Shown one piece after another: positions 12,408-62,639 of a DNA stretch of 64,000 bases; position 1 is the first letter of the stretch; each line of letters starts with the position of its first letter. The stretch is from Squalus acanthias (taxonomy: Eukaryota), in NCBI GenBank assembly GCA_030390025.1, contig CM059431.1, positions 117,802,001-117,866,000 of the forward strand. Direction: 5' to 3'. The translations under genes and the position numbers were made by a program. The notes under the pieces were generated by a model. That model searched no databases, had not been told where the DNA came from, and was given only the letters and a program-made list of their open reading frames with translations.

Positions 12408-15159
12408 CAAGTGTGGTCTAACCAAAGATCGATACAAGTTCAGCATACCTTCACTACTTTTCAATTCTATTCTTCTTGCAATAAACCCTAATGCTTGGTT
12501 TGCATTTTTTATGATCTTATTAACCTGCATCACTACTTTTAGTGATTTATGTATTTGTACTCTCAGATCCATTTGCTCCTCTACCTCATTTAAATTCTTA
12601 TTTTCCAAGTAATATGTGACCTCCTTAATTTTCTTACCAAAATGTAATACCTCACATTTATCTATGTTGAAATTCATTTGCCAATTATATGCCCATTCTG
12701 CAAGTTTATTAATGTCTTTTTGCAATTTGTTGCAGTCCTCCTCAGTATTTAATATCCCCCCCCCCCCCACAATTTGGTGTCATTCGCAAATTTAGAAATT
12801 GTGTTTTTGATTCCAGAGTCTAAATCGTTTATATAAATTGTGAACAACATTGGTCCCAGCACTGATCCTTGTGGGTCACCACTTCCCACCTTCTGCCACT
12901 CTGTGTAGGTACCCTTTGCCCCTACTCTCTGCATTCTGTCTTCCAGACAGCTAGCTATCCATTCTGCTACTTGTTCTCTGACTCCATATGCTCTGACCTT
13001 ATTCATTCGTCTATTGTGTGGCACCTTATCGAAGGCCTTTTGGAAATATAGATAAATTGCATCTAATGCTTTTCTCCAATCTAATACCCTGGTCTTCGTC
13101 ATGCTTATGCCCTTCTCAATTATTATTTTAAAGTGTATTATATTATGGTCAATATTGCCTATATGTTCCCCTACTTTTACTTTTCTTATTTGTTCTGGCT
13201 CATTCCCCATTACTAGATCTAGTAGCGAATTCTCCCTTGTTGGGCTTCTTGCATACAGCGTTAGAAAGGAGTCCTGTATACATGGCAGGAACTCTAGTCC
13301 CTTATCCCCTTTACCTATCTTTTCTAGTCAATTAATTTTGGGGTATTTGAAATCCCCCATGATTATTATTCTATGTTTTTTACTCATTTTTCCTAATTTG
13401 TTTGCATATTTCTTCCTCCATCTCCCTTCCACTATTAGGTGGTCTGTAGACTACCCTTATTAGTGTGATTGATCCTTTGTTATCTTTTATCTCTATCCAT
13501 ATGGTTTCTATTTCTGTCTTACTGATAGCTGCGTCACTTCTTTTTACTGCCATTATGTTACTTCTAATAAGTACAGCCACTCCACCTCCCCTATTTCCCT
13601 CTCTATCTTTTCTAAATATGTTATACCCAGCAATGTTTAATTTCCAGTTCTGATTTTTCTGTAGCCAGGCCTCAGTTATCCCTACTATATCTGATTCCTC
13701 ACAATGTATTATTGTTTTCAGTTCCTGTGTTTTATTACGGACATTGTGTGTAATGCTGTATAGACAGTTTAACTCATTTTAATAACAGTTCCTCCCACTT
13801 TATTTTTTACTAACTTTTTACACTCCTGTTCTATAACTCTATGTATTCCTTGGCCATTTACGTAGTCCCTTAGTTTAGTCTGTCCTATGCTCTCCTTTCC
13901 TGTTCCATTTATATTTCGGCTGGTTTCATTTCTTGTAGATCCCTACCCCGTCTTACTAGTTTAAAGCCTTTGGCACCTCCCTATTTACCCTTTCTGCTCG
14001 GACACTGGTCCCATTCCGGTTCAGTTGGAGTCTGTCCCATCGGTACAGCTCCTTCTTGTCCCAGCTTTGGTGCCAGTGTCCCATGAATAGGAATCCCTCT
14101 TTCTCATACCAGCCCTTCAACCACGTGTTAATTCTCCTGATCTCTCTGTCTCCTGCTTTTTAATTTGGATCCTAACTCCTGTTACTCCCTCAGCAGGACC
14201 AGCGCCTTGTTCCTACCTATGTCATTTGCTCCAACATGGACCACGACAATTGGATTTTCCCCCTCCCTGGAGCAGACAACACACCCTTTGGGTTCTCGTT
14301 CATGGCTGTAGAGGACGCTATCTATCCCCCTAATTATAGAATCCCCTATCACTACCGCATTTCTATTCTGGTCTTCCTCCTCTTGGACAGCCTTCTGAGT
14401 CACAGTGCCTTGGTCTGCATTGTGGCTGTCCTCCCCGTTGTGTTTCTCCTTGTCCTCACAGGTAGAGAGTACATCGTACCTGTTGGACAGGACCAGTGTC
14501 TGCGGGACTTCCTTCTCAACCTCTCCTAAGTCCCCGATACGCGGCTCCCTGACAGTCACACCTTCCCTTCCTGTGCTTTCCTCTGGGGTGTGACTATATT
14601 CTGGATAAAACTATCGAGAAATTCCTCCCCCGCCCTTATGTTTCAGAGTGTTTCTAACTCGCCCTCCAGCTCAATGACGCTGAGCCAGACTGACTGAAGG
14701 CAGAGATGTTTCCTGTAGATGTGGGAATCTGGGACAGTCTCACTGTCCACAAACTCCCACATACTACTGTACAAAAATGAAACGAGTAACTGGTTCTGTA
14801 TAGTTTTTTAAAGTCATTTTCAGTTATTTAAAATAGGGTTACCCTCAGGTGGCGGACTCGACACACTGATTAAAAATGCTTATTTTTTGTGACAAACCCA
14901 TTTTCTGCTATATTAATAAAACTGCACCAGGGCACTACTCTTAAATATATCAAGGAATATTTTGAATGCAAGAAAAGAAAATGAACAATTATATTCTAGA
15001 ACGCTGTCCGGTTGCACTGGTTCATGGACAATCTTACGTTTGTGATTATGCAAATGAGCTCGAACCAAAACTTGAACTATCACATCACACTGAAAAACTA
15101 GCACAATTTTGAGCGCAATTTGCATCTGGATTGCCGATTGCGCCCAAAGCGGAAACTCT

Positions 15160-29495: not shown

Positions 29496-31279
29496 ATGGC
29501 ACATCCATGCCCCAGGGAAAGAGCCCGCAGATGCTGCGATGAGGCATTGGAGGCATTGGTCTTTGCTGTGGAGAGACGGAGGGCGGTGCTGTACCCAGCT
29601 AGTGGCAGGAGGCCCTCGCCGCAAGTCTTCCACACCATGTGGAGGGAGGTAGCCCAGCAGGTCTCGGGCAGCACTGTGGTCCCCAGGACCCACACACAGT
29701 GCAGGAAGAAATTTAACAATCTCACTCGGGTGGTCAGGGTTAGTCAATCATTCAACAAATGCTACATACCACCATCTGTACCACAATCTTCACACAGTGC
29801 CCAAAGCACCACACCCCCAGCACTCACCCACCTTGCACACAATGACAGCTATTCAACTATGGCAGGCACATCACCCAAACACATTGCTCCACACTCACTC
29901 ACACACTTTCCTTCCTCTTGCAGGCCAAGGTGGCTCAAAACAGGAGGGAGCAGTAGCGCACAGGCGGGGGACAAGCCAACACCCAACCACTGTCTGAGCT
30001 GGAGAATCGAGCGCTGCAGATTATTGGGCGCCAGGTGGTGGGCGCCGTGGCCACTGGCGAAGTTGACCCCCTTGGGATAACAACGTATCATCCCTACTCC
30101 TTCTTCTCCCATCCCACTTCCACCTCACTCCACAAGCATTTCGCACTTTCCAGCTAATCATGCTGTATGCATGCATTTCTCCCTTCCTGCCCCCCCCCTC
30201 ATCTTAACCCGACTCTTGTGCCTTTATGCTTTCAGATAATCAGCAAGATCTGAGGAGCCTGTCCCTGAGGGCACAGTTGAGAGCAAGGCAGGAGAAGAGG
30301 AGGAGGAAGAACACACCGCGTCACTGTATGTCTCACCCGCAGGCACCAGCTCAGATACTGGTACTAAGCATTCTTTAGAGGCAGTATAGTAGCGGGATCT
30401 GCACAGGGTGATGCACCAGGGATGAGTGGGCTGCAACAAGGCCAGGGAGAAAGGGCAGCTCGGGGGCCAGCTCCCCAGAGGGCGAGTTTGTGCATGAGTT
30501 CCGCTGCTCAGGACTCAGATGAGGACCATGATGGGGAGGCATTTAGAAGAAGGGTGATGGGCATGCACACGGAGATGATAGGTGCAACGGCAAGGGTGCC
30601 CGAGAGCTTGTCATCAATGATAAGACGCGTGGAGGAGTCCACCTCCAACATTGCACAAGGCTCTGCGCACACCATGGAGCCTATCATTTACAGTCTGCAA
30701 AGGATGGTAGACCCCCAGAGAGACCGTGGCGACCCAGACCTGATGCCGCATGTGATGGGCGATCTGGCAGCTTCCATTGCAGCACAGGCGGAAGCGACGG
30801 AATGTCTTAGTGCTGTAATGCAGTCTATGCTTGGTGGCATCCAAAATCAGACTGCTCTCATGCAGTCTCAGCTTGATGCCACGCAAGCTCTGACTGCTGC
30901 CATCGTGGCTGTGTCTACCACTGTTGACCAGGGCTTTCACGGTGTTGCAGCAGGCCAGCAATCTGTGCTCCAGCCGATTGCTAGGGATGCTGAGGTGCTG
31001 CCCCGGCGGAGTGGCAGTGGGTCAGTGGAGCAGGAAGTTGCTGTCCTCTCTGAGGATGAAAGCATTCCGACTCCCACCACTGCCATTCCGCCCTTGTCCT
31101 TGTCGCTGCCTGTCATCCAGCCAGCCCAGGCTGTGGCCGCCCATACTGAGGTGGTGAAGTCTACAGCCGGGCCTTCCAGGCCCAGAGCTGGTCGAGGGCA
31201 TCCTGCAAGGCCTTCTGAAGTCTCCCGCACGGACACTCAGCAACCTTCCACCAGCCGTGCTGCAGCCAACACTTCATAG
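29496..31279 (+). pseudogene. Harbinger B Myb/SANT-like gene; exons about 29496-29738, 29924-30084, 30236-31279
   Basis: RERARRCC..WREVAQQVS..RTHTQCRKKFNNL; exon 2 AKVAQNRREQ*RTGGG has an in-frame stop; GT-AG introns. Confidence 0.85.
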
Positions 31280-31342
31280 GAGCACTAGAGTAGGCAGGAG
31301 CACTGTAACGAGAGGCACTAAGGGATTGCACATGGGTGAATA

Positions 31343-32008
31343 GGTCACCATTGACCAGAAACTTAACTGGACCAGCCACATAAAAACTGTGGCAACAAGA
31401 GCAGGTCAGAGGCTAGGTATTCTGTGGCGAGTGTCTCACCTCCTGACTCCCCAAAGCCTTTCCACCATCTACAAGGCACAAATAAGGAGTGTGATGGAAT
31501 ACTCTCCACTTGCCTGGATGAGTGCAGCTCCAACAACACTCAAGAAGCTCGACACCATCCAGGACAAAGCAGCCCGCTTGATTGGCACCCCATCCACCAC
31601 CTTAAACATTCACTCCCTCCACAACCGGCACACTGTGACTGCAGTGTTTAACCATCTACAAGATGCACTGTAGCAACTCGCCAAAGCTTCTTCGGCAGCA
31701 CCTCCCAAACCCGCGACCTCTTCCACCTAGAAGGACAAGGGCAGCAGGCGTATGGGAACACCATCACCTCCAAGTTCCCCTCCAAGTCACACACCATCCT
31801 GACTTAGAAGTATATCGCCGATCCTTCATCGTCGCTGGGTCAAAATCCTGGAACTCCCTACCTAACAGCACTGTGAGAGCACCTTCACCACACAGACTGC
31901 AGCGGTTCAAGAAGGTGGCTCACCAACACCTTCTCAAGGGCAATTAGGGATGGGCAATAAATGCTGGCCTTGCCAGCGACGCCCACATCCCATAAACAAA
32001 TTCAAAAT
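31343..32008 (+). mobile_element. 3' fragment of the same LINE family as 26555-28586
   Basis: ATRAGQRLGIL..VMEYSPLAWMSAAPTTLKKLD; matching 3' end. Confidence 0.85.
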
Positions 32009-32170
32009 ATATTGTTGTTGTAAATACATGTTCACTGATTATTGATAAATTTATTCATTCAGTTTGGATTATTTTGTGGTGTCTCTCATTTCAGCTTTGC
32101 GCTGTGATATGGCCTGCGACAGGGATGGAATGATGGGGATGTGGTGAGCAATGGGGATCTGAGGCTTAAC

Positions 32171-33345
32171 TTATTGTAACCGCAGTCTGATGAGGCAGTC
32201 ATGGAGCGCCCTTCCAGAAGTCCGATTGAATGGCTGCCTTCACCCTCGCTCCAGTTCCTCCTCCTTCACCTCGTCTTCCACTTCCTCATCATCCTCCTCC
32301 TCTTCCTCCTTGTCTTCCTCCTGACATGGTCCCGCAATCTCTGGTGGCAAGGGCTGGGCCCTCATGATGGCCAAGTTGTGGAGCATGCAGCAGACCACAA
32401 TGAAATGTGACACCTGCTCAGCCGAGTACTGGAGGGCTCCTCCCGAGCGGTCAAGGCAGCAGGACCATTCCTTGAGCACCCTGATGGTCTGCTCGATGAT
32501 GTTCCTGGTGGCGGCATGGCTCTCATTTTATGAGTGCTGGGCAGGAGTGTTGTGGTTGCAGAGGGGAGTCATGAGCTAGGTGGAGGGCAGATAACCCTTG
32601 TTTCCGTCAGCCAGCTGTGAGCTTAGCATGGTGGCTAGAAGAGTGCTGGCACACTTGTCTGGTGCAGGATGAAGGCATCATGGCTGCTGCCAGGATAGTG
32701 GGCATTCACATTGAGGATTCGCTGTCTGTTGTCACACACCAACTGCACATTAAGTGAGTGGTAGCCTTATCGGTTATGGAAGATCTCAGGAATGTTATGC
32801 GGTGCTCGCAAAGCCACGTGGGTGCAGTCAATGGCGCCCTGCACCATGGGGTATCCTGCTATCCTGGCAAAACCACATGCACGTTCGTCGTGCTTCTCTG
32901 CTGATGGGGAAGGAAATGTAGTCCCTTCTCCTACCATTGAGAGCCTCTGCAACCTCCCAGATGCAGCGATGGATGGCGAACTGTGAGATATATCTCCTGT
33001 TGCAGACTGGAAGAATCCACTGGCGAAGAAATTGAGGGTGACGTTGACCTTGACTGCCACTGGGAGAGCCGTGGTTGCCCTGATCTGAGGCTCGAGGTCT
33101 GGTTGCAGGAGGTGGCAAGTTCTGTGACCACCTCTTTGCTGAAGCGAAGCCTTCTAATGCACTGCTCCTCGCTTAATTGGAGGTAGGAACAGTGCTCTCA
33201 GAATACCCTCGGAGGGTAAGGCCTCCTTTTGAGAGCCCTCATGGCCCTCCTCCTCCCTCTGGGCACATGTTCTAATCTTTCTCGCTGCCTGCGCTCCCTC
33301 CACCTTAGATCCTGGAGGACGAGGTCGACTGCCAGTACAGCCCCC
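32171..33345 (-). pseudogene. Harbinger DDE transposase B
   Basis: [25 protein letters not shown], acidic tail; frameshifted. Confidence 0.9.
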
Positions 33346-34582
33346 ACTAATGTAACCAAGTGTAGCACTTTGATATGTTGTGAGAATAAAAGCAACTAAT
33401 TGTTAGTAGCCACAACACTCCTGACACTAAACAACCTTTTAATAACTGAATTAAACTGTTGCTCAATTGTCAAACTGACAAGGAAGCAGTGAAACAGCAC
33501 TGACATGACAGCTGTGACTCATTACTCATGAACCCTTTAAGTAGCGCCCCTGGAGTCGGCTACTGACTGTTTCAAGCCTCCTCTCACTGTCGCTGTCGGG
33601 GTGAGGCGCTAAGGCAGGGGTCAACAATGAATATTGCAGATCAGGCGCCCAGTGAGCATTGCACGTTCACCGATGTCATGATCTGCCTGGCACTGAAGTC
33701 CCCGGCAGTAGCTTGTAGTGGCGGTGCTATGGGTGGGCCGGATATGGCGTGCATCATTGGATTCGCCTCGCCCCAGCGCTACAGCATCAGCGCCCCGTTA
33801 GTACCCCCGCCAGGCGCTAACTGGAGGCACCAATCAACTTAATTTTCCCCCCCATATGTCTGACTAAGGCGGCTGCCTGGGGCACCTGAATGTTGCCTGT
33901 GTCAACATGGCATCGGACGTATTTCAGGTGCCCTTGGGGTGCGGGACATTTCCCCTAAATTTGAACCACTTTGCCATCATTTTGTGCCTCATAATCAGGC
34001 AAAATGAGGTTGAATTTGGCTCCTCTTATCTTTCTGCTGTAGGTGCTGACTGATTTGCACATTCTTTGTAACATGAAATGCGTTGTTCATAGTTATTTTC
34101 ATTCATAATTCATGCAATTGAAAATGCAGTGAAACAATAATTAAACAATACTGATTTCAGGGTTGCTTTAATATGGTGACAAGTTCCCACAAAGATGTAA
34201 TTGCTTTTTGTGATTACACTGCACAGCAGCTGAGCTCACCCATGCCAATGACAGCAAACTGCTTTTTCAAAGTGTGAAAAACAAACTATTGTAGTAAGAC
34301 TGAAAAAAAGGCAATACCTCCTGTAATTAGTAATATGCCAGTGCTGACTGCAGATTGCAGACTGTATTTCCACTCCTTTCAGCCTCTCACAACTGTTAGA
34401 CATCTGGAGAGATATATGTTGCACATTCTGGGGAGTTAAGGGTTAAGAGTTGAACTTCTTTGTATCTTAAAGCAACAGGCTTCCCAAGATATAAACAGGA
34501 TGTCTTTGAAGTGTTGTGAGGCAAAAGCATGGCTTGTCTTCTGAGATGTAAAGTGCTTGTGTAAGGAAATAAGTGTTAGTAA

Positions 34583-34686: not shown

Positions 34687-37600
34687 AGCGGTGCTACAAA
34701 GAGCACGAGAGGAGCAGCGAGAGGAGCAGAAGCAGCAGCGCTAGACAAAGCCTTCAAACAGAAAAATCAAGGAGTGACATCACAGGGCAGCAGGGACCTG
34801 AGCGGGAGTGAGAGCGGAGGAGGAGCAAATAAACAGCATCGCAGAGGAAAGCCCGAGAGCAGAGGCAGTGGACCTGAGCGGGAGCAACTCAACAAAGGCA
34901 GAATTTGAAAGAGTGACATCGGAATTGAAAAGTGAGGTCGGCACAAGGGAAGGAGCTGATTGGTGAGTAGCTGGTAAGTGTTTCTAGTTTCCAGTTAATA
35001 GTCTATAAAGTAAAGGAATGACAGGGCAGCTCAGCCCCGTGGAATGCACATCCTGTGCCATGTGGAAAGTCCTGGATGCTTCTCGTGGCCTGGACGAACA
35101 TGTGTGCGGGACATGTCACCAGCTACAGCAGCTCGAGCTCCGGGTTTTGGAGTCACTTCAGAGCATTTGCGAGGCTGAGAACTTTGTAGATAGCACGTTT
35201 CAGGAGGTGGTTACCCCGCAGCTTAAGAGTGTACAGGCAGAGAGGGAATGGGTGACTGCCAGACAGACGAGGAGGACCAGGCAGGTAGGGTAGGAATCCC
35301 CTGAGTGCATCTTGCTCGTTAACTGGTTTTCACCTCTGAATACTGGTGGGGGCGATGGTTCCTCTGGGGAGCGCAGCCACAGCCAAGTCTACGGCACCAT
35401 GGGTGGCTCAGTTGCACAGGGGGGGTGAGGAAGAAGAGTGGAAGAGCAATAGTCATAGGGATGCCAATAGTTAGGGGAGCAGACAGGCGTTTCTGCAGCC
35501 GCAGACGTGATTCCAGGATGGTGTGTTGCCTCCTTGGTTCCAGGGTCAAGGATGTCACTAAGCGGTTGCAGGACATTCTGACGGGGATGGTGAACAGCCA
35601 GAGGTCGTTGTCCATATTGGTACCAACGACATAATTAGAAAGAGGGATGAGGTCCTGCAGGCAGATTTTAGGGAGCTAGGAAAGAGATTAAAAAGCAGGA
35701 CCTCAAAGTTAGTAATCTCCGGATTACTCCTGGTGCCACGTGCTAGTGAGTACAGAAATAGGATAGAACAGATGAATGTGTGGCTGGAGAGGTGGTGCAG
35801 GAGGGAGTGCTTTAGATTTCTGAGGCATTGGGACCGTTTCTGGAGGAGGTGGGACCTCTACAAGCCGGACAGGGTTGCACCTCAACAGGACCGGGACCAA
35901 TATCCTCACAGGGGGGATTGCTAGTGCTGTTGGGGAGGGTTTAAACTAGCTTGGCAGGGGAATGGGAATCTGAGAGTAGATTCAGAAGGGAGAGAAGCAA
36001 AGCTGGAAATGGAAGGCAGAAAATTAATAAGCGAGTTTGGAAGGCAGAGGAAACAAAGGCTAGAAAATAGACAACAAGGGAGTTTGACAGTGCTTAATGG
36101 TATATACTTCAACACAAGGAGTCTAGGGAATAAAGCAGATGAGCTGAGGGCACAGATAGACACATGGGAGTATGATATTATAGCTATTACTGAGACATGG
36201 CTGAAAGAAGGGCAGAAACGGCAGCTCAACATTCCTGGTTACAGGGTTTTCAGACGAGATAGTGAGGGGGATAAAAAAGGAGGGGGGGGTCGCAATATTG
36301 TTTAAAGAAACCATTACAGCTGTGAGGAGGGATGATATCTTAGAAGGATCATCCAACGAGGCCATATGGGTAAACTGAAAAGCAAAAAAGGGCCAATCAC
36401 ACTGCTGGGAGTGTACTATAGACCCCCAAATAGTCAGGGGGGATAGAAGAGCAAATATGTAGGCAAATTTCTGAGACGTGCAAAAATAGGGCAGTAATAG
36501 TAGGCGATTTCACCTTCCCTAATATTAACTGGGATAAAATTAGTGTGAAAGGTTTAGAGGGAGCAGAATTCTTAAAATGCATTCAGGAGAATATTTTTAG
36601 CCAGTACGTAGCAAGCCCAACAAGAGAGGGGACAGTTCTGGACCTAGTTTTAGGGAATGAAGCTGGGTAGGTGGAAAGGGTATCAGTAGGAGAGCATTTT
36701 GGTGATAGTGATCATAATTCAGTTAGATTTAGGGTAGTTATGGAAAAGGAAAAGGATAGACCAGGAATACAAGTTCTCAATTGGGGAAAAGCTAATTTTA
36801 CAAAGCTGAGATGTGATTTAGCCAAAGTGGACTGGAGACAGAAACTTGAAGGTAAATCAGTGTCAGAGCAGTGGGAGGCATTCAAGGAGGAGATAGTGAA
36901 GGTTCAGAGCAAGTCTGTTCCCTTAAAGAATAAAGGTGGGACTAACAAATCTCGAGCTCCCTGGATGTCAAGGGGCATACAGGGTAGGATAAAGAAAAAA
37001 AGGCAAGCTTATGACAGATACCAAGGCTCAATACAGCAGAAATGCTAGAGGAGTATAGAAAGTGCAGGGGTGAAATTAAAAAGGAAATTAGGAAAGCAAA
37101 GAGAGGGCATGAAAAAATATTGGCAAGTAAAATCAAGGAAAACCCAAAGATGTTTTATAAATACATTAAGAGCAAGAGGATAACTAAAGTAAGAGTAGGG
37201 CCTATAAGGGACCATAAAGGTAACCTGTGTGTGGAGGCGGAAGACATGGGTATGGTTCTTAATAAATACTTTGCGTCTGTTTTCACATAAAGAGAGGGAT
37301 GATGCAGAAATTGCTATCAGGGAGGAGGAGTGTGAAATATTAGATGAAATAAGCATAGTGAAAGAGGAAGTACTAAGGGGTTTAGCAGCTTTGAAAGTGG
37401 ATAAATCCCTAGGCCCAGATGACATGTATCCCAGACTGTTAAGATAAGTAAGAGAGGAAATAGCAGAGGCTCTGACCATCATTTTCCAATCCTCTCTGGC
37501 TACAGGTGTGGTGCCGGAGGACTGGAGGACTACTAATGTGGTACCATTGTTTAAAAAGGGAGAAAGGGACAGAACAAGTAATTATAGGCCAGTCAGCCTA

Positions 37601-42185: not shown

Positions 42186-43437
42186 ATGGGGGCTGCACTG
42201 GCACTGGACCTCACCTTTTAGTGTCAACGTCGGAGGCAACTGAGGCACAGAGAATGAGTGCAAAATGTGGCCAGAGGTAGGAGGGCGAACAGAGCTCTCA
42301 ACAGGAGGCCTTACCCACCCAGGGTAATCTGGCAGCAGAGGTAGGAGGGTGAACAGGGCTCTCAACAGGAGGTCTTACCCACCCAGGGTATTCCGGCAGC
42401 AGTTCTCCCGCATGAATTTCACTGAGGACCAGTGTGTTAGAAGGCTCCGCTTCAGCAAGGGCGTGGTCACAGAGCTCAGCCACCTCCTGCAGCCAGACCT
42501 CGAGCCTGAGATCAGGACCACCACGGCTCTCTCAGTGGCAGTCAAGGTCACCGTCGCCCTCAATTTCTACGCCAGCGGATCATTCCAGTGTGTGACAGGC
42601 GACATCTCCAACATCTCCCAGTTTGCCGTCCATTGCTCCATCCGCCAGGTCACAGATGCTCTGTACAGAAGGAGAAGGGTTCACATTTCCATCCCCATGG
42701 CCAGAGAGAAGCAGCGCAAGCGTGCATGTGGCTTTGCCAGTATAGCGGGCTTCCCCATGGTGCAGGGCGCCATTGACTGCACCCACGTCGTTTGCGGGCA
42801 CTTCATAACAATCCTGAGGTATTCTGTACCTGCAAAGGCTACCACTCACTTAATGTGCAGTTGTGTGCGACCACACACGGCGAATCCTGACCGTCAATGC
42901 CCGCTATCCTGGCAGCAGCCACGATGCCTTCATCCTGTGCCAGGCTGGTGTGCCAGATCTGTTCCAGCCACCACATCAAGCTTGCGGCTGGCTGCTGGGG
43001 GACAAGGGCTATCTGCTCTCCTCCTGGCTCATGACCCTCCTCGGCAACCCCAACACTCCTGGCCAGCAATCATATAATGAGAGCCAAGCTGCCATCAGGA
43101 ACATCATTGAGCAGACCATCGGAGTGCTCAAGCAACGGTTCCGCTGCCTTGGTCGCTCAGGAGGAGCCCTCCAGTATTTGGCTGAGTGTCACTTTAAATT
43201 GTCATCTGCTGCATACTGCACAACTTGGTCATTATGAGGGCGTAGCCAATGCCACCAGGCATAACTCCACCACCTCAGGAGGAGGAGGAGGAGGACGAGG
43301 AGGAGGACGAGGACGAGGAGGAAGAAGAGGAGCAGGAGGAACAGGAGGACGAACATCAGCGATGGAGGAGGCAGCAACTGAATTGGAATTCTGCAAGGTC
43401 AGTCCGTGACCGCCTCATCAGATTTTGTTTCCAGTGA
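42186..43437 (+). pseudogene. Harbinger DDE transposase D
   Basis: KVTVALNFYASGSFQ, GAIDCTHV, YPGSSHDAFI, LLGDKGY, IEQTIGVLKQRFRCL; frameshifts. Confidence 0.9.
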
Positions 43438-43825
43438 CTTTGAGTCCTCGTTCTGTTTGCTGAGCACGTCGCCATCAATGGAGCAAGGAATGCAGACATT
43501 CTCAGGAGGTGGAAAGTGAGAAAGGTTTGTGGTGTGAGGGGGACATGGGATGAGAGAAGGAGAGGGGTTGAAGTTACCGTTTTTGCACTTAATGGGGTCG
43601 ACGTCGCCGACGGCCATTGTGCCTACCACCTGCTGCCCAATGAGTCACTGCACTCGTTCCTCAAGGTCTGAGAGCTGCTGGAGCTGCGCATCACCCCCGC
43701 CTGTTCTGTGGTGCTCCCTCCTATTGTGGGCCTATCATAGAATCATAGAATCATAGAAGATAGGAGCAGGAGTAGGCCATTCGGCCCCTCTAGCCTGCTC
43801 CGCCATTCAATGCAATCATGGCTGA

Positions 43826-46823
43826 TCATCCAAATTCAGTACACTGTCCCTGCTTTCTCCCCATATCCCTTGATCCCTTAGCCTTAAGAAATATATCCAA
43901 CTCCTTCTTGAATCTATTTAATGAATTGGCCTCTACTGCCTTCTGTGGCAGAGAATTCCACAGGTTCACCACTCTCTGGGTGAAGAAATTCCTCCTCATT
44001 TCTGTCCTAAATGGCTTACCCCTTATCCTTAGACTGTGACCCCTGGTTCTGGACTCCCCGACCATCAGGAACATCCTTCCTGCATCTAGTTTGTCCTGTC
44101 CTGTCAGAACTTTATAAGTTTCAATGAGATCCCCTCTCATTCTTCTAAACTCCAGCAAGTATAAGCCCAATCGACCCAATCTTTCTTCATACATCATTCC
44201 TGCCATCCCAGGTATCAGCCTTGTGAATCTTCGCTGAACTCCTTCCATGGCAAGAACATCCTTCCTCAGATAAGGCGACCAAAACTGCACACGTTACTCA
44301 AAGTGTGGTCTCACCAAGGCCCTGTACAACTGCAGCAAGACATCCTTGTTCCTGTACTCAAACCCTCTCGCTATGAAGGCCAACATACCATTTGCCTTCT
44401 TAACCGCCTGCTGCACCTGCATGCTTACCTTCAGCGACTGGTGCACAAGAACACCCAGGTCTCGTTGCACTTCCCCTTCTGCCAATCTATTGCCATTCAG
44501 ATAATAGTCTGCCTTTCTGTTTTTGACACCAAAGTGGATAACCTCGCATTTATCCACGTTATATTGCATCTGCCACGCTTCTGCCCAATCACCCAACCTG
44601 TCCAAATCATCCTGGAGTTTCTCGGCATCCTCCTCGCAGCACACACGCCCACCCAGTTTTGTGTCGTCTGCAAACTTGGAGATATTACATCTAGTTCCCT
44701 TGTCTAGATCATTAATATATATTGTGAATAGCTGGGGTCCAAGGGACCGATTCCTGCGGTACCCCACTAGTCACTGCCTGCCACTCGGAAAAAGACTCGT
44801 TTATTGCAACTCTTTGCTTTCTGTTTGCCAACCAGTTCTCTATCCAAGTCAATACCTTGCCCCCAATCCCATGTGCCTTAACTTTACACGCTAATCTCTT
44901 ATGTGGGACCTTATCAAAAGCCTTTTGGAAGTCCAAATACACCACATCCACTGGTTCTCCCTTATCGATTTTGCCAGTTACATCCTCAAAAAATTCCAAT
45001 AGATTAGTCAAGCATGATTTAAATTTTGTAAATCCATGTTGACTTTGTCCGATCCTGTCACTGTTTTTCAAGTGGTCAGCTATTACATCTTTTATAATGG
45101 ACTCTAGCATTTTCCCCACTACCGATGTCAGGCTTACCGGTCTGTAATCCCCCGTTTTCTCTCTACCACTCTTTTTGAATAGTGGGGTAACATTAGCTAC
45201 CCTCCAATCCATGGGTACTGTTCCAGATTCCATCGAATGTTGGAAGATGATCAGCAATGCATCTACTATTTCTAGGGCCACTTCCTTAAGTACCCTAGGA
45301 TGTAGATTATCAGGCCCTGGGGATTTATCGGCCTTCAATCCCTTCAATTTCCCTAACACCATTTCCCTACAAATACTGATTTCTTTCAGTTCCTCCCTTT
45401 CATCAGACCCTATGTTCCCCAACATCTCTGGGAGGTTATTTGTGTCCTCCTTTGTGAAGACAGAACCAAAATATGTATTTAATTGGTCTGACATTTCTTT
45501 GTTCCCCATTATAAGTTCCCCTGATTCTGACTGCAAGGGACCTATGCTTGATTTCACTAATCTTTTTCTCTTCACATATCTATAAAAGCTTTTACAGTCA
45601 GTTTTTATGTTTCCTGCAAGCTTACTCTCGTATTCTATTTTCCCCTTCTTAATTAATCCCTTTGTCCTCCTTTGTTGAATCTTAAACTGCTCCCAATCCA
45701 CAGGGTTACTGCTTTTTCTGGCCAATTTATATGCCCTCTCCTTGGATCTTATGCTATCCCTAATTTCCCTTGTTAGCCATGGTTGAGTCACCCTTTTTGT
45801 TTTATTCTTATTCCAAACTGGGATGAACAAATTCTGTAGTTCGTCCATGCGGTCTTTGAATGTTTGCCATTGCCTCTCCACCGTCAACCCTTTGAGTGAC
45901 ATTCCCCAATCAATCCTACCCAACTCGCACCTCATACCATCGTAGTTTCCTTTATTTAAATTCAGGACCCTAGTCTCTGAGTCAACTACTTCACTCTCCA
46001 TCCTAATGAAGAATTCTATCATATTATGATCGCTCCGACTTAAGGGGCCTCACACAACAAGATTGCTAATTAATCCTTTCTCATTGCATAATACCCAGTC
46101 TAAGATGGCCTGATCTCTGGTTGGTTCCTCGACATATTGGTCCAGGAAACCATCCCGTAAACACTCCAGGAATTCCTCCTCCATAGTATTGTTACTAATT
46201 TGGTTAGCCCAATCTATATGTAGATTAAAGTCACCCATGATGACTGCTGTGCCCTTATTGCACGCTTCTCTAATTTCCCTTTTAATGCCATCCCCAACCT
46301 CCGCATTACTGTTTGGAGGTCTATATATCACTCCCACTAACGTTTTCTGCCCCTTGTTATTTCTCAGTTCAACCCATACAGATTCCACATCATCAGAGCT
46401 AATATCCTTCCTTTCAATTGTGTTAATCCCCTCTTTAACCAGCAATGCTACCCCACCTCCCTTTCCTTTTTGCCTATCTTTCCTGAATATTGAGTACCCC
46501 TGGATATTAAGTTCCCAGCCTTGGCCACCCTGGAGCCATGTTTCGGTAATCCCAATCAAATCATATTCGTTTACCTCTATTTGCGCAGCTAATTCGTCCA
46601 CCTTGTTCCGAATGCTCCTTGCATTAAGACACAAAGCCTTCAGGCTTGTTTTTTTAACGCTCTTAGACCTATTAGAATTAGTATTTACTGTGGCCATGTT
46701 TGATTTAAACCGTTGTTTTCTCTGACTGCAACTTTTGTTTTTCTCCTTCCTATCTTTTGCTTTTATCCTTGTTTCCCTTTCCTCTGTCTCCCTGCTCAGG
46801 TTCCCAACCCCCTGCCATTTTAG
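43826..46823 (-). pseudogene. CR1 ORF2 (APE endonuclease plus reverse transcriptase), about 3 frame disruptions
   Basis: LNARSIRNK, GITETWL, MGDFN, FQKAFDKVPH, KFADDTKL. Confidence 0.95.
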
Positions 46824-47770
46824 TTTAAACCCTCCCCCAGAGCACTAGCAAACACTCCCCCTAGGACATCGGTCCCGGCCCTGCCCAGGTGTAGACCGTC
46901 CGGTTTGTACTGGTCCCACCTCCCCCAGAACCGGTTCCAATGTCCCAGGAATTTGAATCCCTCTCCCTTGCACCATTCCTCTAGCCACATATTCAGTTGA
47001 AATATCCTTCTATTTCTACTCTGACTAGCACGTGGCACTGGTAGCAATCCTGAGATTACCACCTTTGAGGTCCTATTTTTTAATTTACCTCCTAACTCCC
47101 TATATTCTGCTTTTAGGATCTCATCCCGTTTTTTACCTATATCGTTGGTACCTATATGTACCACGACAACTGGCTGTTCACCCTCCCCTTCCAAAATGCT
47201 CTGTAGCCGCTCTGAGCCATCCTTGACCCTTGCACCAGGGAGGCAACATACCATCCTGGAGTCTCGTTTGCTGCTGCAGAAACGCCTATCTATTCCCCTT
47301 ACAATAGAATCCCCTATCACGATAGCTCTCCCACTCTTTTTCCTCCCATCCTGTGCAGCAGAACCACCTATGGTGCTAGGAAGTTGGCTGCTGCTGTCTT
47401 CCCCTGATAAGCCATCTCCCTCAACAATATCCAAAGCGGTATATCTGTTTGAGAGGGGGATGGCCACAGGGGACCCCTGCACTACCTGCCTGCGCCTATT
47501 ACTCTGCCTGGTGGTCACCCATTCCCTTCCTGCCTGTACACCCTTTACCTGCGGTGTGACCAACTCCCTAAACGTGATATCCACGATGTTCTCAGCATCG
47601 CGAATGCTCCAGTATGCATCCATCCGCAGCTCCAGCGCCGAAATGCAGTCTGTCAGTAGCTGCAGCTGGATACATTTCCCACACACATGGTTGTCAGGGA
47701 CACAGGAAGTGTCCCTGATTTCCCACATAGCGCAGGAAGAGCATGTCACAGCACTGAGCTGTCCTGCCAT
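46820..47770 (-). CDS. CR1 ORF1p, 316 aa: zinc finger/leucine zipper plus SGNH esterase-like domain, intact
   Basis: CSSC..CGKC; VIGDS, LPGA, HIGTND, DGLH blocks. Confidence 0.9.
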   Translation of the reverse strand: MAGQLSAVTCSSCAMWEIRDTSCVPDNHVCGKCIQLQLLTDCISALELRMDAYWSIRDAENIVDITFRELVTPQVKGVQAGREWVTTRQSNRRRQVVQGSPVAIPLSNRYTALDIVEGDGLSGEDSSSQLPSTIGGSAAQDGRKKSGRAIVIGDSIVRGIDRRFCSSKRDSRMVCCLPGARVKDGSERLQSILEGEGEQPVVVVHIGTNDIGKKRDEILKAEYRELGGKLKNRTSKVVISGLLPVPRASQSRNRRIFQLNMWLEEWCKGEGFKFLGHWNRFWGRWDQYKPDGLHLGRAGTDVLGGVFASALGEGLN

Positions 47771-49426
47771 GACTTACCCTTTAATTAATTAATTAAAATT
47801 AAATTTAAATTAAATGGATCCTACCAATTACACTGGAATTATGTGATATACTTAAGGGCCCTTACTTAACAGTAGTCCCCGCTACACAAAGAGAACGTAG
47901 AAGCCACAAAATTTAAGTTTAGAAAAATTGAGAAAGAAAACACTCACCAACCAATCACTTACCTGCTTTTTGGTGACGTCACACTACGAATACTTTTTTG
48001 CTTCCCTCTCCCGGAACCTGGATTTGTAAGCCGCCTCGGGGCTCACCTTAAGTACCGCCGCTCGCCACCTCTGTTCCCTCGCAGGTCCGCTGCCTCTGCC
48101 GCCTCGCCGCTCTAGGCCTCGCTGCCGCCTCGGGGCTCACCTTAAGTACCGCCGCTCGCCGCCTCTGTTCCCTCGCAGGTCCGCCGCCTCTGCTGCCTCG
48201 CCGCCTACAAGAGAAACAAATGTGTTTCAGTCAGAGTCCAGCTATGTGTTTGGGAGATATGCCTGCCATCATTGAATAGCTGTGATTGTGGCAAGGTGTG
48301 AGATGTGGATGTGAGTTTGAGTCGGTGAAGATGTTTGGTGGGTGAGTGGTGGGGGTGTGGTTGTTGGCGCAGTGTGCTCAGACTGAGGTTCAGATGCTGG
48401 TATGTAGGAGCTGTTGAAGCATGTACTCACCTTGACCACCCGACCGAGGTCGTTGAATTACTTGCGGCACTGTGTCAGGCTACGTTCCACAAAACTTCTG
48501 GCTGAGACTTCCTGGGCCACTTCCCTCCACATTGCCCTGAACACCTGAGGCGATGGTCTCCTTCCAGTGGCTGGAACAGCATTGCCCTCCTTCACTCCAC
48601 TCCAACCACCAATGCCTCCAAAGCCACGTCTGTGAACCGACGAGCTCTCTCCCTGGAGTGGGAACAGCCATAGCCATCAGGGGATTCATTTGCTCGCAGG
48701 TCACCTCAAAGTCAGCAATGCTGAAAATGAGCATCTGCACAATGATGCAACCTCCCTTTAAGAGTTGAAAGGAACCAGTGTGAAGGATCATTGCTGAATG
48801 CATTGTACCTGAAATTCATTAGCGCTCTGCTGGTAGCGCCCCTGTAGCACCCCACTGAGGTCATTAGTGCTTGATTTAGCGCCCCACTTCCTTCCTGGGG
48901 CGCTAAAACCCAATTTAGTAGAAATTTAGAATCCTTAGCGCCTGGCGCTAAATTTTCAAAATTTCAAAAGTTAGCGCCCCAAATGGAGCGATATCCAATT
49001 TCACCACCAAAATATGGGAGTTGAAGCATGGACTAAAGGGATGTGAAATGGGAGTTGGACTGCTGAAAATGTTGAGAGAGGCAGTTATAGCAGTTCCTAA
49101 GCATTAACTGAGAAAAGGATTGGGACTCTGGACTGAATATTTAGCATTCCCTTCACCCTTTACTCTATGTCGTTACACTAATCCCGTATACAAGAGGAAA
49201 GTGTTAAGAACTGTGCAGTCGGTAAAAGGCTTGGGTGAGGACACATACTGAGAGCTTGAAAATTTGAATCAGTACAGAATGGGATTCAGTAGAAAACATC
49301 AGAAATTGAAAATTGGTTTAAGGAAAAAAAGATAAAAATAGTTTTGATGGAATAAAGGAGAAAAGGGGAAGCTCATGTCTCTTTTCTACTGATCCACAGT
49401 TTTTTTGTTTTCAGTGTGAATGTTAA

Positions 49427-50475: not shown

Positions 50476-51047
50476 CCCGCCCCGAGACTTTTATTGTGGC
50501 CATGGTGAAATTCTGGTTGGTGTAAATTATGTGCAAGTCTCTAGCTCCGGACGTAAGGCAATAACATCAATAACTGGCATTTAACAAAAAAATTCTGACC
50601 AATTTCAGTATTCAATGCTTTGAGGTGTCTGTTTATTTATCTTAATGGTATTGGAATGTGTGACCAGAAGAGGGAAAAAGGATGGAATGCTATTTCTGTG
50701 TGCATGTACATGATAAAAGCTGCAAGAAGTTGTGTATCACAAGCTGATATTGATTGATGATGTGTGGGTTTGTCTTCTTTTGAAATGAAAATAAAATTAA
50801 CACTTTTCACAAGCAGCTGTGCTTTTTTTTGTTACTTTCAGATATCAGATTAACTGTTTTAATGCACTAAACAACAACTTTTGCATTACTGACTGTAAAC
50901 ATTTTTTTAAATTTTAAGTTTTTTTAATTTGACAGAAGGGAATTAGAAATTGACAAATGACAAATTAACCTATTGGGCTGTCAGGAGCCTCAATGGATTT
51001 TCTGTTTTTTCTTTTAAGCAGAGGGCCTGATGAGTGTCGATGGCGCA

Positions 51048-51849
51048 CTTTCCATACCTCGGGAGCCTACTGTCAACAAGGGCAGACGTCGATGACGAAG
51101 TCCAACACCGCCTTCAGTGTGCCAGTGCAGCCTTCGGTTGCCTGAGGAAGAGAGTGTTTGAAGACCAGGACCTCAAACCCAGCACCAAGCTCATGGTCTA
51201 CAGAGCAGCAGTGATACCCGCCCTGCTGTATGCCTCAGAGACATGGACCATGTACAGCAGGCACCTCAAAGCACTGGAGAGGTACCACCAACGCTGCCTC
51301 CGCAAGATCCTGCAAATCCATTGGCAGGATAGGCGCACCAACGTCAGTGTTCTCGCTCAGGCCAACATCCCCAGCATCGAAGCTTCGACCACGCTCAATC
51401 AGCTCCGATGGACGGGTCACATCGTCCGCATGCCCGATTCGAGACTCCCAAAACAAGCGCTCTACTCGGAGTTCCGACACGACAAGAGAGCCCCAGGTGG
51501 GCAGAGGAAACGCTTCAAGGACACCCTCAAAGCCTCCTTGAAAAAGTGCAACATCCCCACTGACACCTGGGAATCCCTGGCCCAAAACCGCACAAAGTGG
51601 AGGAGAAGCATCCGGGAAGGCGCTGAACACCTCTGTCTCTTTGCCGGGAGCAAGCAGAAGCCAAGCGCAAACAGCAGAAGGAGCACATGCTAACACAAGC
51701 ACCCCACCCACCTGCCCCTTCAACCGCCGTCTGCCCCACCTGTGACAGAGACTGTAGGTCCCGCATTGGACTCATCAGTCACGTGAGAACTCATTTTTAA
51801 TGTGAAAGCAAGTCATCCTCGGTTCCGAGGGACTGCCTAAGAAGAAGAA
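51048..51849 (+). mobile_element. RTE-clade LINE, 5'-truncated
   Basis: FPYLGS, LLYASETW, LRWTGHIVRMPDSRLPK; (GAA)n tail; GATGGCGCA/GATGGTGCA TSD. Confidence 0.9.
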
Positions 51850-59339: not shown

Positions 59340-60950
59340 CTCGTTGTCACTGTGGATGCAGCCTCGTCGCAACAGGGAAGAGAAAGGGCATAGCGCTTCT
59401 CAGATGCAGCATTGGAGGCCTTGGGCCAGGGGGTATACTTAAGAAGACAGGCTCTCTAATCGCAGGAGGGCAGGAGGCCTTCTAGACAGAATGGCAGAAG
59501 GCAATGGGATGAGAGAACCCAAGCCGTCAGTGCTATGAGTGTTGCCCCCAGGACCTGGATCCAGTACCACATGAAGTTTAATGACCTCACACGAGTGGTC
59601 AAGGTCAGCAAATGCAGCTTCAAATGCCATATCCCACCAATTGCACCATTAGCCTCACACACTGCTGAATGCACCACACCCCCATCACTCACCTACCAAC
59701 AATCTCTAGCAATCATAACTTATACCTCACAATCATAGTTTCACCTCACCCTCACACACTTTTGAAAGCCTCATACCCACATCTCATATCTTGCAGACAA
59801 GGTCAGCTATTCAACCATGACAGACACATCACCCAAACACATTGCACCACACTCACTGACACACTTCCCTTTCTCTTGCAGGCCAAGGTGGCTCACAACC
59901 AATATGAGCAGCAGCAGACAGGTGGAGGTGAAGCACGTCTGTCGAACCTTACTGCGCTCGAGGAGACTGTGCTGGAGATAACTGGAGGGGCCGTCACTGA
60001 GGCCGTGGTGAGCAGCGAAGTTGAAAGCATTGCTGATGATGGCATGCTCATATCTAATCTATCTTCTCACATCCCACTTCACCCTCATTGCACAATCTTT
60101 TCTCACTTACAAGCTGCTGATGGTATAAGCGGGCACATCTTGCTTTCACACCCCCTCACCACAACCTGACCCTTGTGCATTTCTCCTTTCAGATACCCAA
60201 GAACTGCCAGCAGCCCAGCCTGTCCCCGACCAAGTAGAAGAGGAGAGTGATGGAGAAGAAGAGGCACGGTCACACCATCTGACACTCCCAGGCACCAGCA
60301 CAGAAAATGGCACAGTGCAAACTTTGAGTGTAGTATAGAGGCAGGGTCTGCACATGGTGAGTCACCGGGCATGAGTGGGCTGCAGCCAGGCCAGGGGGTG
60401 AGTTCGCATATGAGTTCTGCTGCACACGACTCTGAAGAGTACTTCAATGGTGCGGCCTTCAGAAGAAGGGTGAAGGGTGCAGTCTCAGATTGCTGCCATG
60501 CAAGCTCAGACTGATGCCATCGTGGCTGGGTTTTCGAGTGGGGAAAGGAGCTTGCAGGGTCTCACAGCAGTCCAGCAATCTGTGCTCCAACAGATGGCAA
60601 GGAATGTAGAAGCGCCGCCCCAGGGGAGTGGCAGTGGCTCCATGGAGCAAGGATCTGCTATCCTCTCTCAGAATGACAGCATTCGTATTCCTACCACTGC
60701 CACTATGCCAGTGCCCTTGCTGCTGCCTGTCAACCAGCCAGCCCAGACTGCTGCCACCCATGTTGTGGTGGTGCAGTCTACAGCCGGGCCTTCTAGGCCC
60801 AGAGCTGCTTGAGGTCATCCTACAAGGTCATCTGCAGTTTCCCGCATGGAAAGTCAGCAGCCATGCTGCAGCCACTGGGGAAGCACTGCATAGGAATACT
60901 AGAATAGGCAAAGGGACACTAAAGACAGACACCAAAGGAATGTACAAAGG
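59340..60950 (+). pseudogene. Harbinger C Myb/SANT-like gene; exon 1 ends 59603, exon 2 starts 59882, exon 3 starts 60193
   Basis: PRTWIQYHMKFNDLTRVVK; AKVAHNQYEQQQTGGG; exon 3 internally deleted. Confidence 0.8.
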
Positions 60951-61126
60951 TGATTAGTTGACTTTGTTATGTAGTATTGGGTTGAAGCATTTAGAAATTA
61001 TATATGGAACACTTGTTTTGTGGTGGCTTTCATTTCAGATTTCTACCCAATAGGATGCTGTAATGCTCCATGACAGAGGGATGGTAAGGTGGGGAAGTGT
61101 TGAGCAACGGGGATCTGGGGTTTCAT

Positions 61127-61226
61127 TCATTGGAACCAGAGGCTAATGAGGCGCTCACGGACAGCCCGTCTGTAATGGGTATCTGCTGCCTGTCTCCTCC
61201 CTTCCTTCTCCTCCCTTCCTCCTCTC

Positions 61227-61257
<31 letters not shown>

Positions 61258-62281: not shown

Positions 62282-62639
62282 GACTGGGAGCAAGTGGGTT
62301 GAGCAGAACCCTTGAAGTCAGAAGCAAGGCCTTCTCCATCTGCAACACCACTCCCTGTCACCTCACCAATTTTAAATAGCTGTAGAAAGCTCCAAACACT
62401 TGCACAAACTTACTCAGAGCCAGTAGAAATCAAAAAGCAAGTTTCCTGAAAGTTGTTGATGATCCCTTTAAATACTGCGGGTGGGGGTCCCTCGTGCAGA
62501 TGAACGCACCTTCAGCTATGTGTGCTTTGGACAGGGCGTGCAGTCAAGCAGCAATGTCCAAAATAGCAGGTGATGTCATGATCTGTCGCATTAGCATTCT
62601 TCTGGTGAATGCAAGCAATGGCCGCGCTACCGACCTGTT

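Follow-up and report, generated by a model that had tools for sequence, protein, structure and literature searches.

The CR1 element and its ORF1-ORF2 junction

The window, by which we mean the whole 64,000-nucleotide stretch of Squalus acanthias DNA analysed here, holds on the minus strand, with the features listed below between 43734 and 47770, an element that, judged from its sequence, is a CR1 LINE of the esterase-ORF1 type. CR1 LINEs typically end 3' in a short tandem repeat of the 8-bp type, without poly(A), and such a repeat was found here together with an SGNH esterase in ORF1 and with an APE endonuclease domain and a reverse transcriptase (RT) domain in ORF2. The ORF1 esterase matches Pfam Lipase_GDSL_2 (E 4.6e-13) and, with profile A1, 4C1B (E 7.9e-47), and by eye the ORF1/ORF2 junction resembles alignment rows labelled LINE/CR1. 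This copy is dead, its ORF2 frame being broken by a stop at 46052. Its features, and the junctions of two further copies in the window, are as follows.

46820..47770, minus strand: ORF1, 316 aa; by the alignment its N-terminus is Cys-pair/coiled-coil-like, and its C-terminal part is an SGNH/GDSL esterase
46823..46829, minus strand: slippery heptamer U_UUA_AAC (T_TTA_AAC); in ORF1 phase, the last base of Gly, then Leu and Asn
46820..46822, minus strand: ORF1 stop, abutting the 3' end of the heptamer; its UA belongs to the -1-frame Leu codon CUA
46698..46829, minus strand: linker in the -1 frame, spanning 44 codons between heptamer and first Met; subfamilies share its phase and openness and differ in its length and sequence
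46803..46812, minus strand: G-run GGGGGnnGGG, sequence GGGGGTTGGG, which begins 11 nt 3' of the heptamer and may act as an unstructured stimulator
46695..46697, minus strand: first in-frame ORF2 AUG in this subfamily; its position varies between subfamilies
46050..46697, minus strand: APE endonuclease part of ORF2 (Exo_endo_phos match)
44712..46022, minus strand: RT fragment of ORF2 (RVT_1 match)
43734..43758, minus strand: 8-bp tandem repeat that closes the element at its 3' end
35940..35949, plus strand: heptamer and TAG in a copy of a second CR1 subfamily, from sequence
13956..13965, minus strand: heptamer and TAG in a copy of a third, more distant CR1 subfamily, from sequence

ORF1 ends GAG GGT TTA AAC TAA, and T_TTA_AAC stands, as the initial annotation had claimed, in X_XXY_YYZ phase (46829-46823) directly before the stop (46822-46820). 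The open -1 frame and the G-rich tract (46812-46803) that it had described beyond the junction were also confirmed: from the heptamer on, the -1 frame reads FK and then LKWQG...FKSN (42 codons) before the Met at 46697, and between heptamer and APE motif it contains no stop, against 4 in the 0 frame and 7 in the +1 frame. Upstream, the -1 frame is closed by a stop ending at 46845, so that it overlaps ORF1 by 25 nt. Across the six frames of the window an X_XXY_YYZ heptamer precedes 35 of 5,940 stop triplets (0.6%); heptamer and stop are present in all three window CR1 copies that retain ORF1 (at 46829 and 13965 on the minus strand and 35940 on the plus strand).

Conservation of the heptamer, stop and phase

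Heptamer and -1 phase, for which the initial annotation had proposed a test of conservation, were both kept when examined across subfamilies. With motif-blind anchoring on the ORF1 protein, the heptamer followed by a UAR stop was found in 88 of 98 copies from the same genome, representing about nine subfamilies, these copies being best-scoring matches for which the DNA queries for S1-S3 included the junction, and subfamilies of common ancestry not being independent samples. Of these own-genome copies, 36 of the 43 recovered by protein queries had heptamer and TAR, and heptamer and UAR stop were present in 5 of 6 bird-type loci, namely those with a bird-type ORF1 end among the 22 loci of a metagenome scan; the remaining loci of that scan ended before the junction or resembled unrelated esterases. 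Copies without the exact heptamer and stop have small changes in individual copies, and in the old subfamily S7 only 1 of 5 copies has both, yet they are present in the S7 majority sequence. The abutting stop is UAA or UAG in 15 of 15 representatives, but these were picked by motif, with a looser G-run filter, so that counts drawn from them are circular; the motif-blind set consists of the 98 copies and the bird-type loci.

In all seven subfamily majority sequences the APE domain lies in the -1 frame, and their linkers, 45-69 codons long, contain in 417 codons no stop in the -1 frame, against 43 in the 0 frame and 33 in the +1 frame. It had been set beforehand that young subfamilies be searched for an ORF2 in the 0 or +1 frame and for linker stops; neither was seen, ORF2 lying in -1 behind a stop-free linker.

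The site is conserved beyond amino-acid need, with synonymous bases fixed and the phase kept. Free synonymous variation at Gly-Leu-Asn was looked for and not seen: the junction codons, counted outside the motif-blind set, are TTA in 10 of 10 cases and AAC in 10 of 10, and the preceding third base is T in 10 of 10 under four different amino acids, against a background in the same ORF1s of 11% TTA among Leu codons, 43% AAC among Asn codons and 23% T at third positions. The invariant Leu of the ORF1 DGLHL motif is written with five different codons, compared with the single codon of the heptamer Leu.

Among ORF1 homologues, 108 of 153 end in Leu-Asn (LN) and 11 of 153 in Gly-Asn (GN), mostly as Gln-Gly-Asn. 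At residue -3, Gln occurs in 10 of 12 GN proteins and 0 of 123 LN proteins, the difference that G_GGA_AAC, as opposed to U_UUA_AAC, would require; the pattern fits a G_GGA_AAC heptamer in the Gly-Asn-ending elements, as read from their proteins. Of the DNA of such elements, two viral-contig scans gave no relative, the 22 metagenome-scan loci included none, and a prokaryote-genome scan gave one 506-nt fragment from which the junction is absent. In LN proteins E/K/M/Q/W are scarce at residue -3 (2/123), and also at -6, -7, -9 and -10 (5-11/123), so part of the signal at -3 may reflect a helix face.

In one cluster of a distant lineage, P0260 ends ...QLSLN and P0271 runs ...QLSKL-FKLVGKGG... into an APE domain, and the LN-stop of the first and the FKL of the second, in two frames, jointly spell the heptamer. 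In the L2-type esterase 4C1B only two residues follow the aligned helix, which leaves no room for an LN tail, and proteins of L2-type look, as read from sequence, end without LN. A set of 29 longer proteins yielded no lineage with a naturally fused single ORF; they were rejected as natural fusions, being mostly multi-exon-style bird gene models or chimeras.

Translation of ORF2

The ORF2 AUG at 46697 proved not to be conserved: the first in-frame Met lies at position 16, 16, 23, 43, 51 or 58, or is absent, in the seven subfamily majority sequences, and at 44 in the window copy. The young subfamily S4 (12 copies, 99% alike) has no in-frame Met before the APE motif, and one intact copy of it combines a 308-aa ORF1 with a 968-codon -1 frame in which the conserved endonuclease motifs NARS (47) and ITETW (72) precede the first Met (166). 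A SART1-type arrangement, with an ORF2-frame AUG that overlaps or abuts the stop of ORF1, was not found at the locus, in the representatives or in the subfamily sequences.

A downstream ORF that often has no usable start, together with a conserved heptamer, makes it most likely that ribosomes slip back one base. We therefore propose, with a probability of roughly 0.85, that esterase-type CR1 LINEs express ORF2 by programmed -1 frameshifting, yielding an ORF1-ORF2 fusion of ~1,270 aa. The observed features, namely a site conserved in sequence and phase, a linker that stays open and an AUG that can be dispensed with, argue for the Gag-Pol-like fusion that the initial annotation had suggested. 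Most ribosomes would end ORF1 at the UAR codon, and a minority, whose P site holds UUA and whose A site holds AAC, would slip back one base onto UUU AAA, read CUA (Leu) across the stop and continue into ORF2. The predicted product at this copy is ...Gly-Leu-Asn-Leu-Lys-Trp..., of ~1,270 residues and at low level; that ribosomes slip, and that they make a fusion protein in small amounts, is what we infer from these features.

Termination-reinitiation, in which ribosomes stop at UAR and restart on a linker AUG or near-cognate codon to give free ORF2p, is the described route for studied LINEs according to passages of PMC5972666. Most subfamilies do retain some in-frame AUG before the APE motif, so that reinitiation could contribute, and the AUG-less S4 has in-frame AUU, CUG and UUG codons. 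Several shark subfamilies also have UGGGA, which we take to be the calicivirus reinitiation motif, inside the G-run; the motif, however, follows the stop, and S3, S5, S7, S9 and the bird-type loci lack it. The AUG that comes directly behind the ORF1 stop (46818) was rejected as the ORF2 start, being in the +1 frame, where it opens 22 codons, and it is absent in other subfamilies. Reinitiation would moreover leave unexplained the invariant UUA and AAC codons with their preceding U, the Q-G-N class, and a -1 phase that stays fixed, with a linker devoid of stops ahead of any start, and we regard it as improbable.

Still less probable is that the heptamer is kept for a C-terminal Leu-Asn or as an RNA signal (termination, packaging or RNP assembly), with ORF2 made from a spliced or internally started RNA. 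Leu-Asn is indeed conserved at the protein level, but a protein requirement does not fix synonymous bases, and the last three ORF1 residues have pLDDT <50 in an AlphaFold model of the esterase, a weak hint given that termini often score low. As to splicing, bird gene models join upstream exons onto ...S-FKLD and donor-like sites occur in the 5' UTR; these models, however, are unannotated predictions whose upstream parts differ from each other, and the junction is preceded by purine-rich sequence with no pyrimidine tract. Contigs from three runs, whose RNA status is only guessed, span the junction without a gap, and no splice-type ends were seen among 15 of 64 joints listed for contigs of four runs, in which strand and level are not readable. 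Transcriptional slippage, or indel artefacts in dead copies, is very improbable, for although G-runs near the junction gain and lose bases in old copies, the same phase is found in young 99%-identical subfamilies and in the intact copy, and T3A3 falls well short of the 9-base runs that PMC5009743 names in connection with slippage.

Candidate downstream signals and comparison with known systems

U_UUA_AAC is the coronavirus 1a/1b slippery site, and of the analogy drawn by the initial annotation the shift site itself holds, whereas no downstream pseudoknot or stem-loop was found. A fold downstream was not borne out: the 90 nt following the site in 15 representatives gave z-scores of -2.3 to +1.6 (-1.66 at the locus), with no conserved structure and no shared fold, and G-quadruplex-enabled folding gave weak two-tier quadruplexes in 6 only. 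Neither this nor MFE folding placed a stem-loop or pseudoknot 5-9 nt downstream, which sets the CR1 site apart from the canonical structure-stimulated cassette. No conserved long-range partner for the G-run was detected either, the best duplexes falling at unrelated places in scans of whole elements for two window copies and of up to ~1.5 kb downstream for the others. G occupies heptamer-relative positions 18-21 in 15 of 15 representatives, themselves picked with the looser G-run filter; the run is visible by eye in crocodilian and chondrichthyan alignment rows and not in some others, and it also encodes x-Gly in the -1 frame. We speculate, at somewhat below even odds, that the adjacent stop promotes the slip together with the G-run at +11, which would act via a bound protein, and that local RNA structure does not.

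[quoted passage not shown] More tentatively again, this family, which leads the retrotransposons of birds and other reptiles in abundance and is a major one in sharks, might, along with more distant esterase-LINE relatives, make a Gag-Pol-like fusion via an undescribed signal. That signal would consist of the heptamer, the stop abutting it and, 11 nt downstream, a G-run to which a protein of the host or the element is recruited; it would date back to early jawed vertebrates, and other lineages would have G_GGA_AAC as a second class of heptamer. Full-text literature searches gave no report of frameshifting in CR1; Haas 1997, Kajikawa 1997 and the Repbase entries, which lie outside them, may mention the overlap. 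The CR1 literature examined does not address the ORF2 translation route. If the frameshift is real, the reverse transcriptase would be tethered to the esterase ORF1p, unlike in LINE-1, a difference of relevance to how the RNP assembles and to cis preference. The calling of intact CR1s would also change: an AUG-to-stop search truncates the endonuclease and would therefore miss potentially active copies, and functional constructs built from such calls would get the wrong N-terminus. A strong shift site without RNA structure would be a new type of natural stimulator.

Canonical eukaryotic -1 frameshifting combines an X_XXY_YYZ heptamer with a stem-loop or pseudoknot lying 5-9 nt 3' of it (Firth and Brierley 2012, PMC3542737). 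Retroviral gag-pol and coronavirus 1a/1b have in common with CR1 the in-phase heptamer and, as predicted for CR1, an abundant structural-type protein upstream and a rare polymerase fusion, whereas CR1 lacks the 3' stem-loop or pseudoknot, has its stop abutting the site and has no detected protease domain. Comparable in geometry is PRRSV nsp2, whose frameshift depends on trans-activation by nsp1beta together with poly(C)-binding protein (Atkins et al. 2016, PMC5009743) and has, instead of an RNA structure, a short motif without structure that lies 11 nt 3' of where the shift occurs; the likeness is one of geometry only, the CR1 motif being G-rich, not CCCANCUCC, and no trans factor being known for CR1. 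Among APE-type non-LTR elements, Dictyostelium TRE5-A and TRE3-A are stated in a passage of PMC5911963 to need a -1 frameshift for ORF2; they belong to another element family and host, and the comparison is by statement and not by shift site. The same ORF1 domain and ORF2 layout recur in esterase-ORF1 CR1 and L2 elements (ZfL2-1, PDB 4C1B; parts of PMC3905857, PMC4120745 and PMC13343379), and the word 'frameshift' has 0 occurrences in the main-text portions of these three papers. With LINE-1 and SART1, as portrayed in sections of PMC5972666, CR1 shares a bicistronic LINE RNA and, as predicted, low-level ORF2 expression; in those elements ORF2p is a protein of its own, begun at the stop or beyond it, whereas in CR1 the slippery site is conserved and the AUG is dispensable.

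The CR1 element and its junction

The junction lies in a near full-length LINE, which is listed here with the other repeats of the window:

about 48200 to 43734, minus strand: LINE holding the junction
47770-46820, minus strand: ORF1, 316 aa, GDSL/SGNH esterase
48030-48204, 5' end of the CR1 element: GC-rich tandem repeat, 94-bp unit, 1.9 copies, 96% alike
55-801, 29496-33853, 42338-43422, 51040-51693 and 59669-62296: other repeats, as repeat pairs within the window

The other repeats presumably comprise a GIY-YIG-like ORF (Penelope-type), several Harbinger-like transposase and Myb-like pieces, and an RTE-like RT end. Two ORFs of 211 and 234 aa (19440-22627, minus strand) look like envelope- and gag-type LTR-element remnants.

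The junction-bearing element is, by its domains and 3' end, an esterase-type CR1. A profile of ORF1 relatives matched 4C1B, the ZfL2-1 ORF1 esterase structure (E 7.9e-47), the closest named ORF1 relatives come from sharks and rays, ORF2 carries APE endonuclease and RT domains, and the 3' terminus is an 8-bp tandem repeat. ORF2 is broken at 46052, so this copy is dead; it belongs to a young subfamily, since 40 scored matches among 3,031 candidates in its own genome are 98-100% identical. The 94-bp repeat is probably a repeated promoter-type unit. On the minus strand, the 5' UTR also holds the palindrome GTGACGTCAC (47982-47973), which we take to be CRE-like, GT dinucleotides at 47962 and 47947 that resemble splice donors and, within 47982-47882, pyrimidine tracts and an AG at 47883-47882; a donor-like site and this AG could delimit a possible 81-nt intron. 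In the excerpted supplement of PMC13343379, two rows labelled dogfish resemble this UTR in palindrome, donor-like sites and pyrimidine tract.

The initial annotation had placed a T_TTA_AAC heptamer at 46829-46823 in ORF1 phase, a TAA stop at 46822-46820, a -1 frame open as far as the Met at 46697 and a G-tract at 46812-46803, all of which we recovered. Up to the APE motif this copy contains no stop in the -1 frame versus 4 and 7 in the other frames, and its first in-frame Met is at codon 44. Of 5,940 stop triplets counted across the window, only 35 follow such a heptamer, and the ORF1 stop does so in all three window CR1 copies bearing ORF1.

Conserved phase and a dispensable AUG

When the ORF1 end was placed via protein residues -45 to -9, blind to the motif, in 98 copies (the best matches in the same genome of three DNA queries spanning the junction and three protein queries), the heptamer followed by TAA or TAG was present in 88 (36/43 among protein-query copies). 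The other ten carried small changes in single copies, four of them from the old subfamily S7. Seven subfamily sets of 4-13 copies were reduced to majority sequences, each of which keeps the heptamer and a TAR stop and places the APE motif in the -1 frame; subfamily S1, whose set did not fit the motif pattern used, is outside this count, and the heptamer is retained in 28 of its 30 copies. Heptamer and phase are conserved across the CR1 junctions of this genome, a point that the initial annotation had left to alignment. In the seven sets the linker between heptamer and APE motif is 45-69 codons long and widely divergent, and over 417 codons it contains no stop in the -1 frame versus 43 and 33 in the remaining frames, counts that are not independent trials as the sets share kinship. 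Linker length has turned over while the -1 phase stayed.

Codon choice is constrained as well: in the 10 representatives of sufficient length, which were selected by motif, ORF1 invariably closes with NNT-TTA-AAC-TAR, where NNT encodes Gly, Ser, Val or Ala; the unbiased figure is the motif-blind 88/98. Across these ORF1s, TTA makes up 11% of Leu codons and AAC 43% of Asn codons, 23% of codons end in T, and five different codons serve the invariant Leu of DGLHL.

The ORF2 AUG, whose conservation the initial annotation had proposed to test, proved poorly conserved. Its position varies between subfamilies, with the first in-frame Met at codon 16, 16, 23, 43, 51 or 58, or absent from the stretch examined, in the seven sets; in subfamily S4, the clearest case, it is absent before the APE motif. 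S4 gave 127 scored ORF1 matches, mostly uninterrupted, and 12 fetched copies, 99% alike, among which those with the APE motif in frame all lack an in-frame AUG upstream of it. One copy is intact throughout: its ORF1 has 308 aa, and its -1 frame stays open over 968 codons, past the RT motif and up to the 3' repeat (predicted fusion, 1,274 aa); in a second the frame is open for 657 codons and the element sequence ends before the RT motif. The first Met of the intact copy, at 166, follows the NARS (47) and ITETW (72) motifs, which we take to hold catalytic residues, so a whole S4 endonuclease cannot be obtained by AUG initiation. The in-frame AUG of ORF2 is dispensable.

With site, phase, conservation, open linker and dispensable AUG demonstrated, the junction is real and conserved and very probably a programmed -1 frameshift, and the ORF1-ORF2 fusion put forward in the initial annotation is favoured, at a probability of about 0.85 on sequence grounds. 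Tandem slippage would take UUA-AAC to UUU-AAA, CUA would be read across the ORF1 stop, and the resulting ORF1p-ORF2p fusion would be scarce relative to free ORF1p. Termination-reinitiation, the route of LINE-1 and SART1, is improbable: the AUG one base past the window ORF1 stop opens a +1 frame of 22 codons (46818-46750, minus strand) and is missing from other subfamilies. The in-frame near-cognate codons AUU, CUG and UUG of S4 would leave a small chance for non-AUG initiation. Less probable still is another role for the heptamer, with ORF2 made by spliced or internal expression; gap-free contigs across the junction occur in three of four public runs, whose status as RNA is guessed, and argue weakly against this. 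Transcriptional slippage or an artefact producing an apparent -1 arrangement is hardly credible.

The junction in other lineages

A Leu-Asn C-terminus ends 86 of 120 ORF1 homologues, among them named proteins from sharks, rays, coelacanth, a mormyrid fish, frogs, turtles, a snake and lizards; the rest are mostly fragments or chimeras. Two pooled searches gave 153 proteins with a DGxH motif 18-45 residues from the C-terminus, ending in LN (108), GN (11), KN (2), SN (2) or otherwise (30, some of L2-type appearance). The residue preceding Leu in LN proteins allows a U-ending codon in 121/123 and is never Gln (0/123), while residue -3 in GN proteins is Gln in 10/12 and allows a G-ending codon in 12/12. 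At the protein level, this pattern would be the covariation expected of G_GGA_AAC versus U_UUA_AAC; other helix positions near the ORF1 C-terminus likewise avoid E/K/M/Q/W. The distant esterase ORF1s P0207, P0235, P0181, P0191, P0156 and P0206 end in Ser-Lys-Asn, Glu-Asn or Ser-Asn and, from protein alone, may represent further heptamer classes (A_AAA_AAC, G_GAA_AAC).

Six loci from metagenome contigs hold an ORF1 end of bird type, so labelled because named stork gene models share FKLDxKGEG. Five have the heptamer followed by TAG, and all three that are long enough and intact have APE in the -1 frame, open from the heptamer; a fourth, L056, is frame-broken. The stork gene models P0287-P0297 join seemingly unrelated upstream pieces to the CR1 -1 frame at S-FKLD, a hint that annotation pipelines meet an ORF2 lacking a start. 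In a distant lineage, protein P0260 ends in QLSLN and its cluster member P0271 continues QLSKL-FKLVGKGG into the APE domain. CR1-type ORF1s under bacterial names (P0008 and L077; Pseudomonas aeruginosa, Providencia alcalifaciens) are probably host contamination of assemblies.

A motif-positive search of the PMC13343379 supplement, in excerpted cells of 400 nt read by eye at 22 of 23 places and having no denominator, found the motif at an ORF1 end in 16 rows among the matches listed, with labels that read as alligator, crocodile, bowfin, bullfrog, chimaera, stingray, coelacanth, sawfish, catshark, dogfish and halosaur, and in an unrelated context in six.

The downstream region and known frameshift systems

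Folding of the downstream region, proposed in the initial annotation and carried out here on 90 nt in representatives and the window copy, revealed no conserved hairpin or pseudoknot; the region is rich in purines, its z-scores span -2.3 to +1.6, and no fold is common to the set. No conserved distant pairing partner for the G-run emerged. The canonical -1 cassette requires a structure 5-9 nt downstream (PMC3542737, in part), whereas none conserved was found at the CR1 site, so this cassette is only half present. What is fixed among the representatives, in sharks and bird-type loci alike, is a UAR stop abutting the heptamer and a G-run that occupies positions 18-22 when the first heptamer base is 1, and so begins at the 11th nucleotide past the heptamer. 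In the -1 frame it reads as an xxG codon (Gln, Arg, Gly or Lys) plus GGG in 15/15 representatives, which were filtered for a nearby G-run, versus GGG at 94/270 downstream Gly codons, a bias that suggests RNA-level constraint. By eye, crocodilian, sawfish, catshark and chimaera rows in the excerpts of PMC13343379 have a G-run, and bowfin, halosaur and one dogfish row have none.

We found no literature report of CR1 frameshifting; there is roughly one chance in three that the founding CR1 papers of 1997 and 2003, Repbase or supplements note the overlap. By term search of the text accessible, 'frameshift' is absent from the main text of PMC13343379, PMC4120745, PMC4316615 and PMC3905857 and carries only other meanings in PMC4255032, PMC6609765 and part of PMC11835228. 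The retrotransposon passages of a 2016 frameshifting review (PMC5009743), in the portion available, cover HeT-A, TART and mammalian LINEs, with CR1 absent and counted at zero occurrences.

LINE frameshifting has precedent, since the accessible part of PMC5911963 attributes a -1 frameshift to the Dictyostelium elements TRE5-A and TRE3-A. In PRRSV, frameshifting relies on an unstructured, protein-bound motif that lies 11 nt 3' of the shift site (PMC5009743, same portion), and because the CR1 G-run has this 11-nt geometry, our leading guess is that the CR1 slip would be stimulated by a protein. A known -1 mechanism would very probably now extend to a major vertebrate retrotransposon family for which we found no such report.
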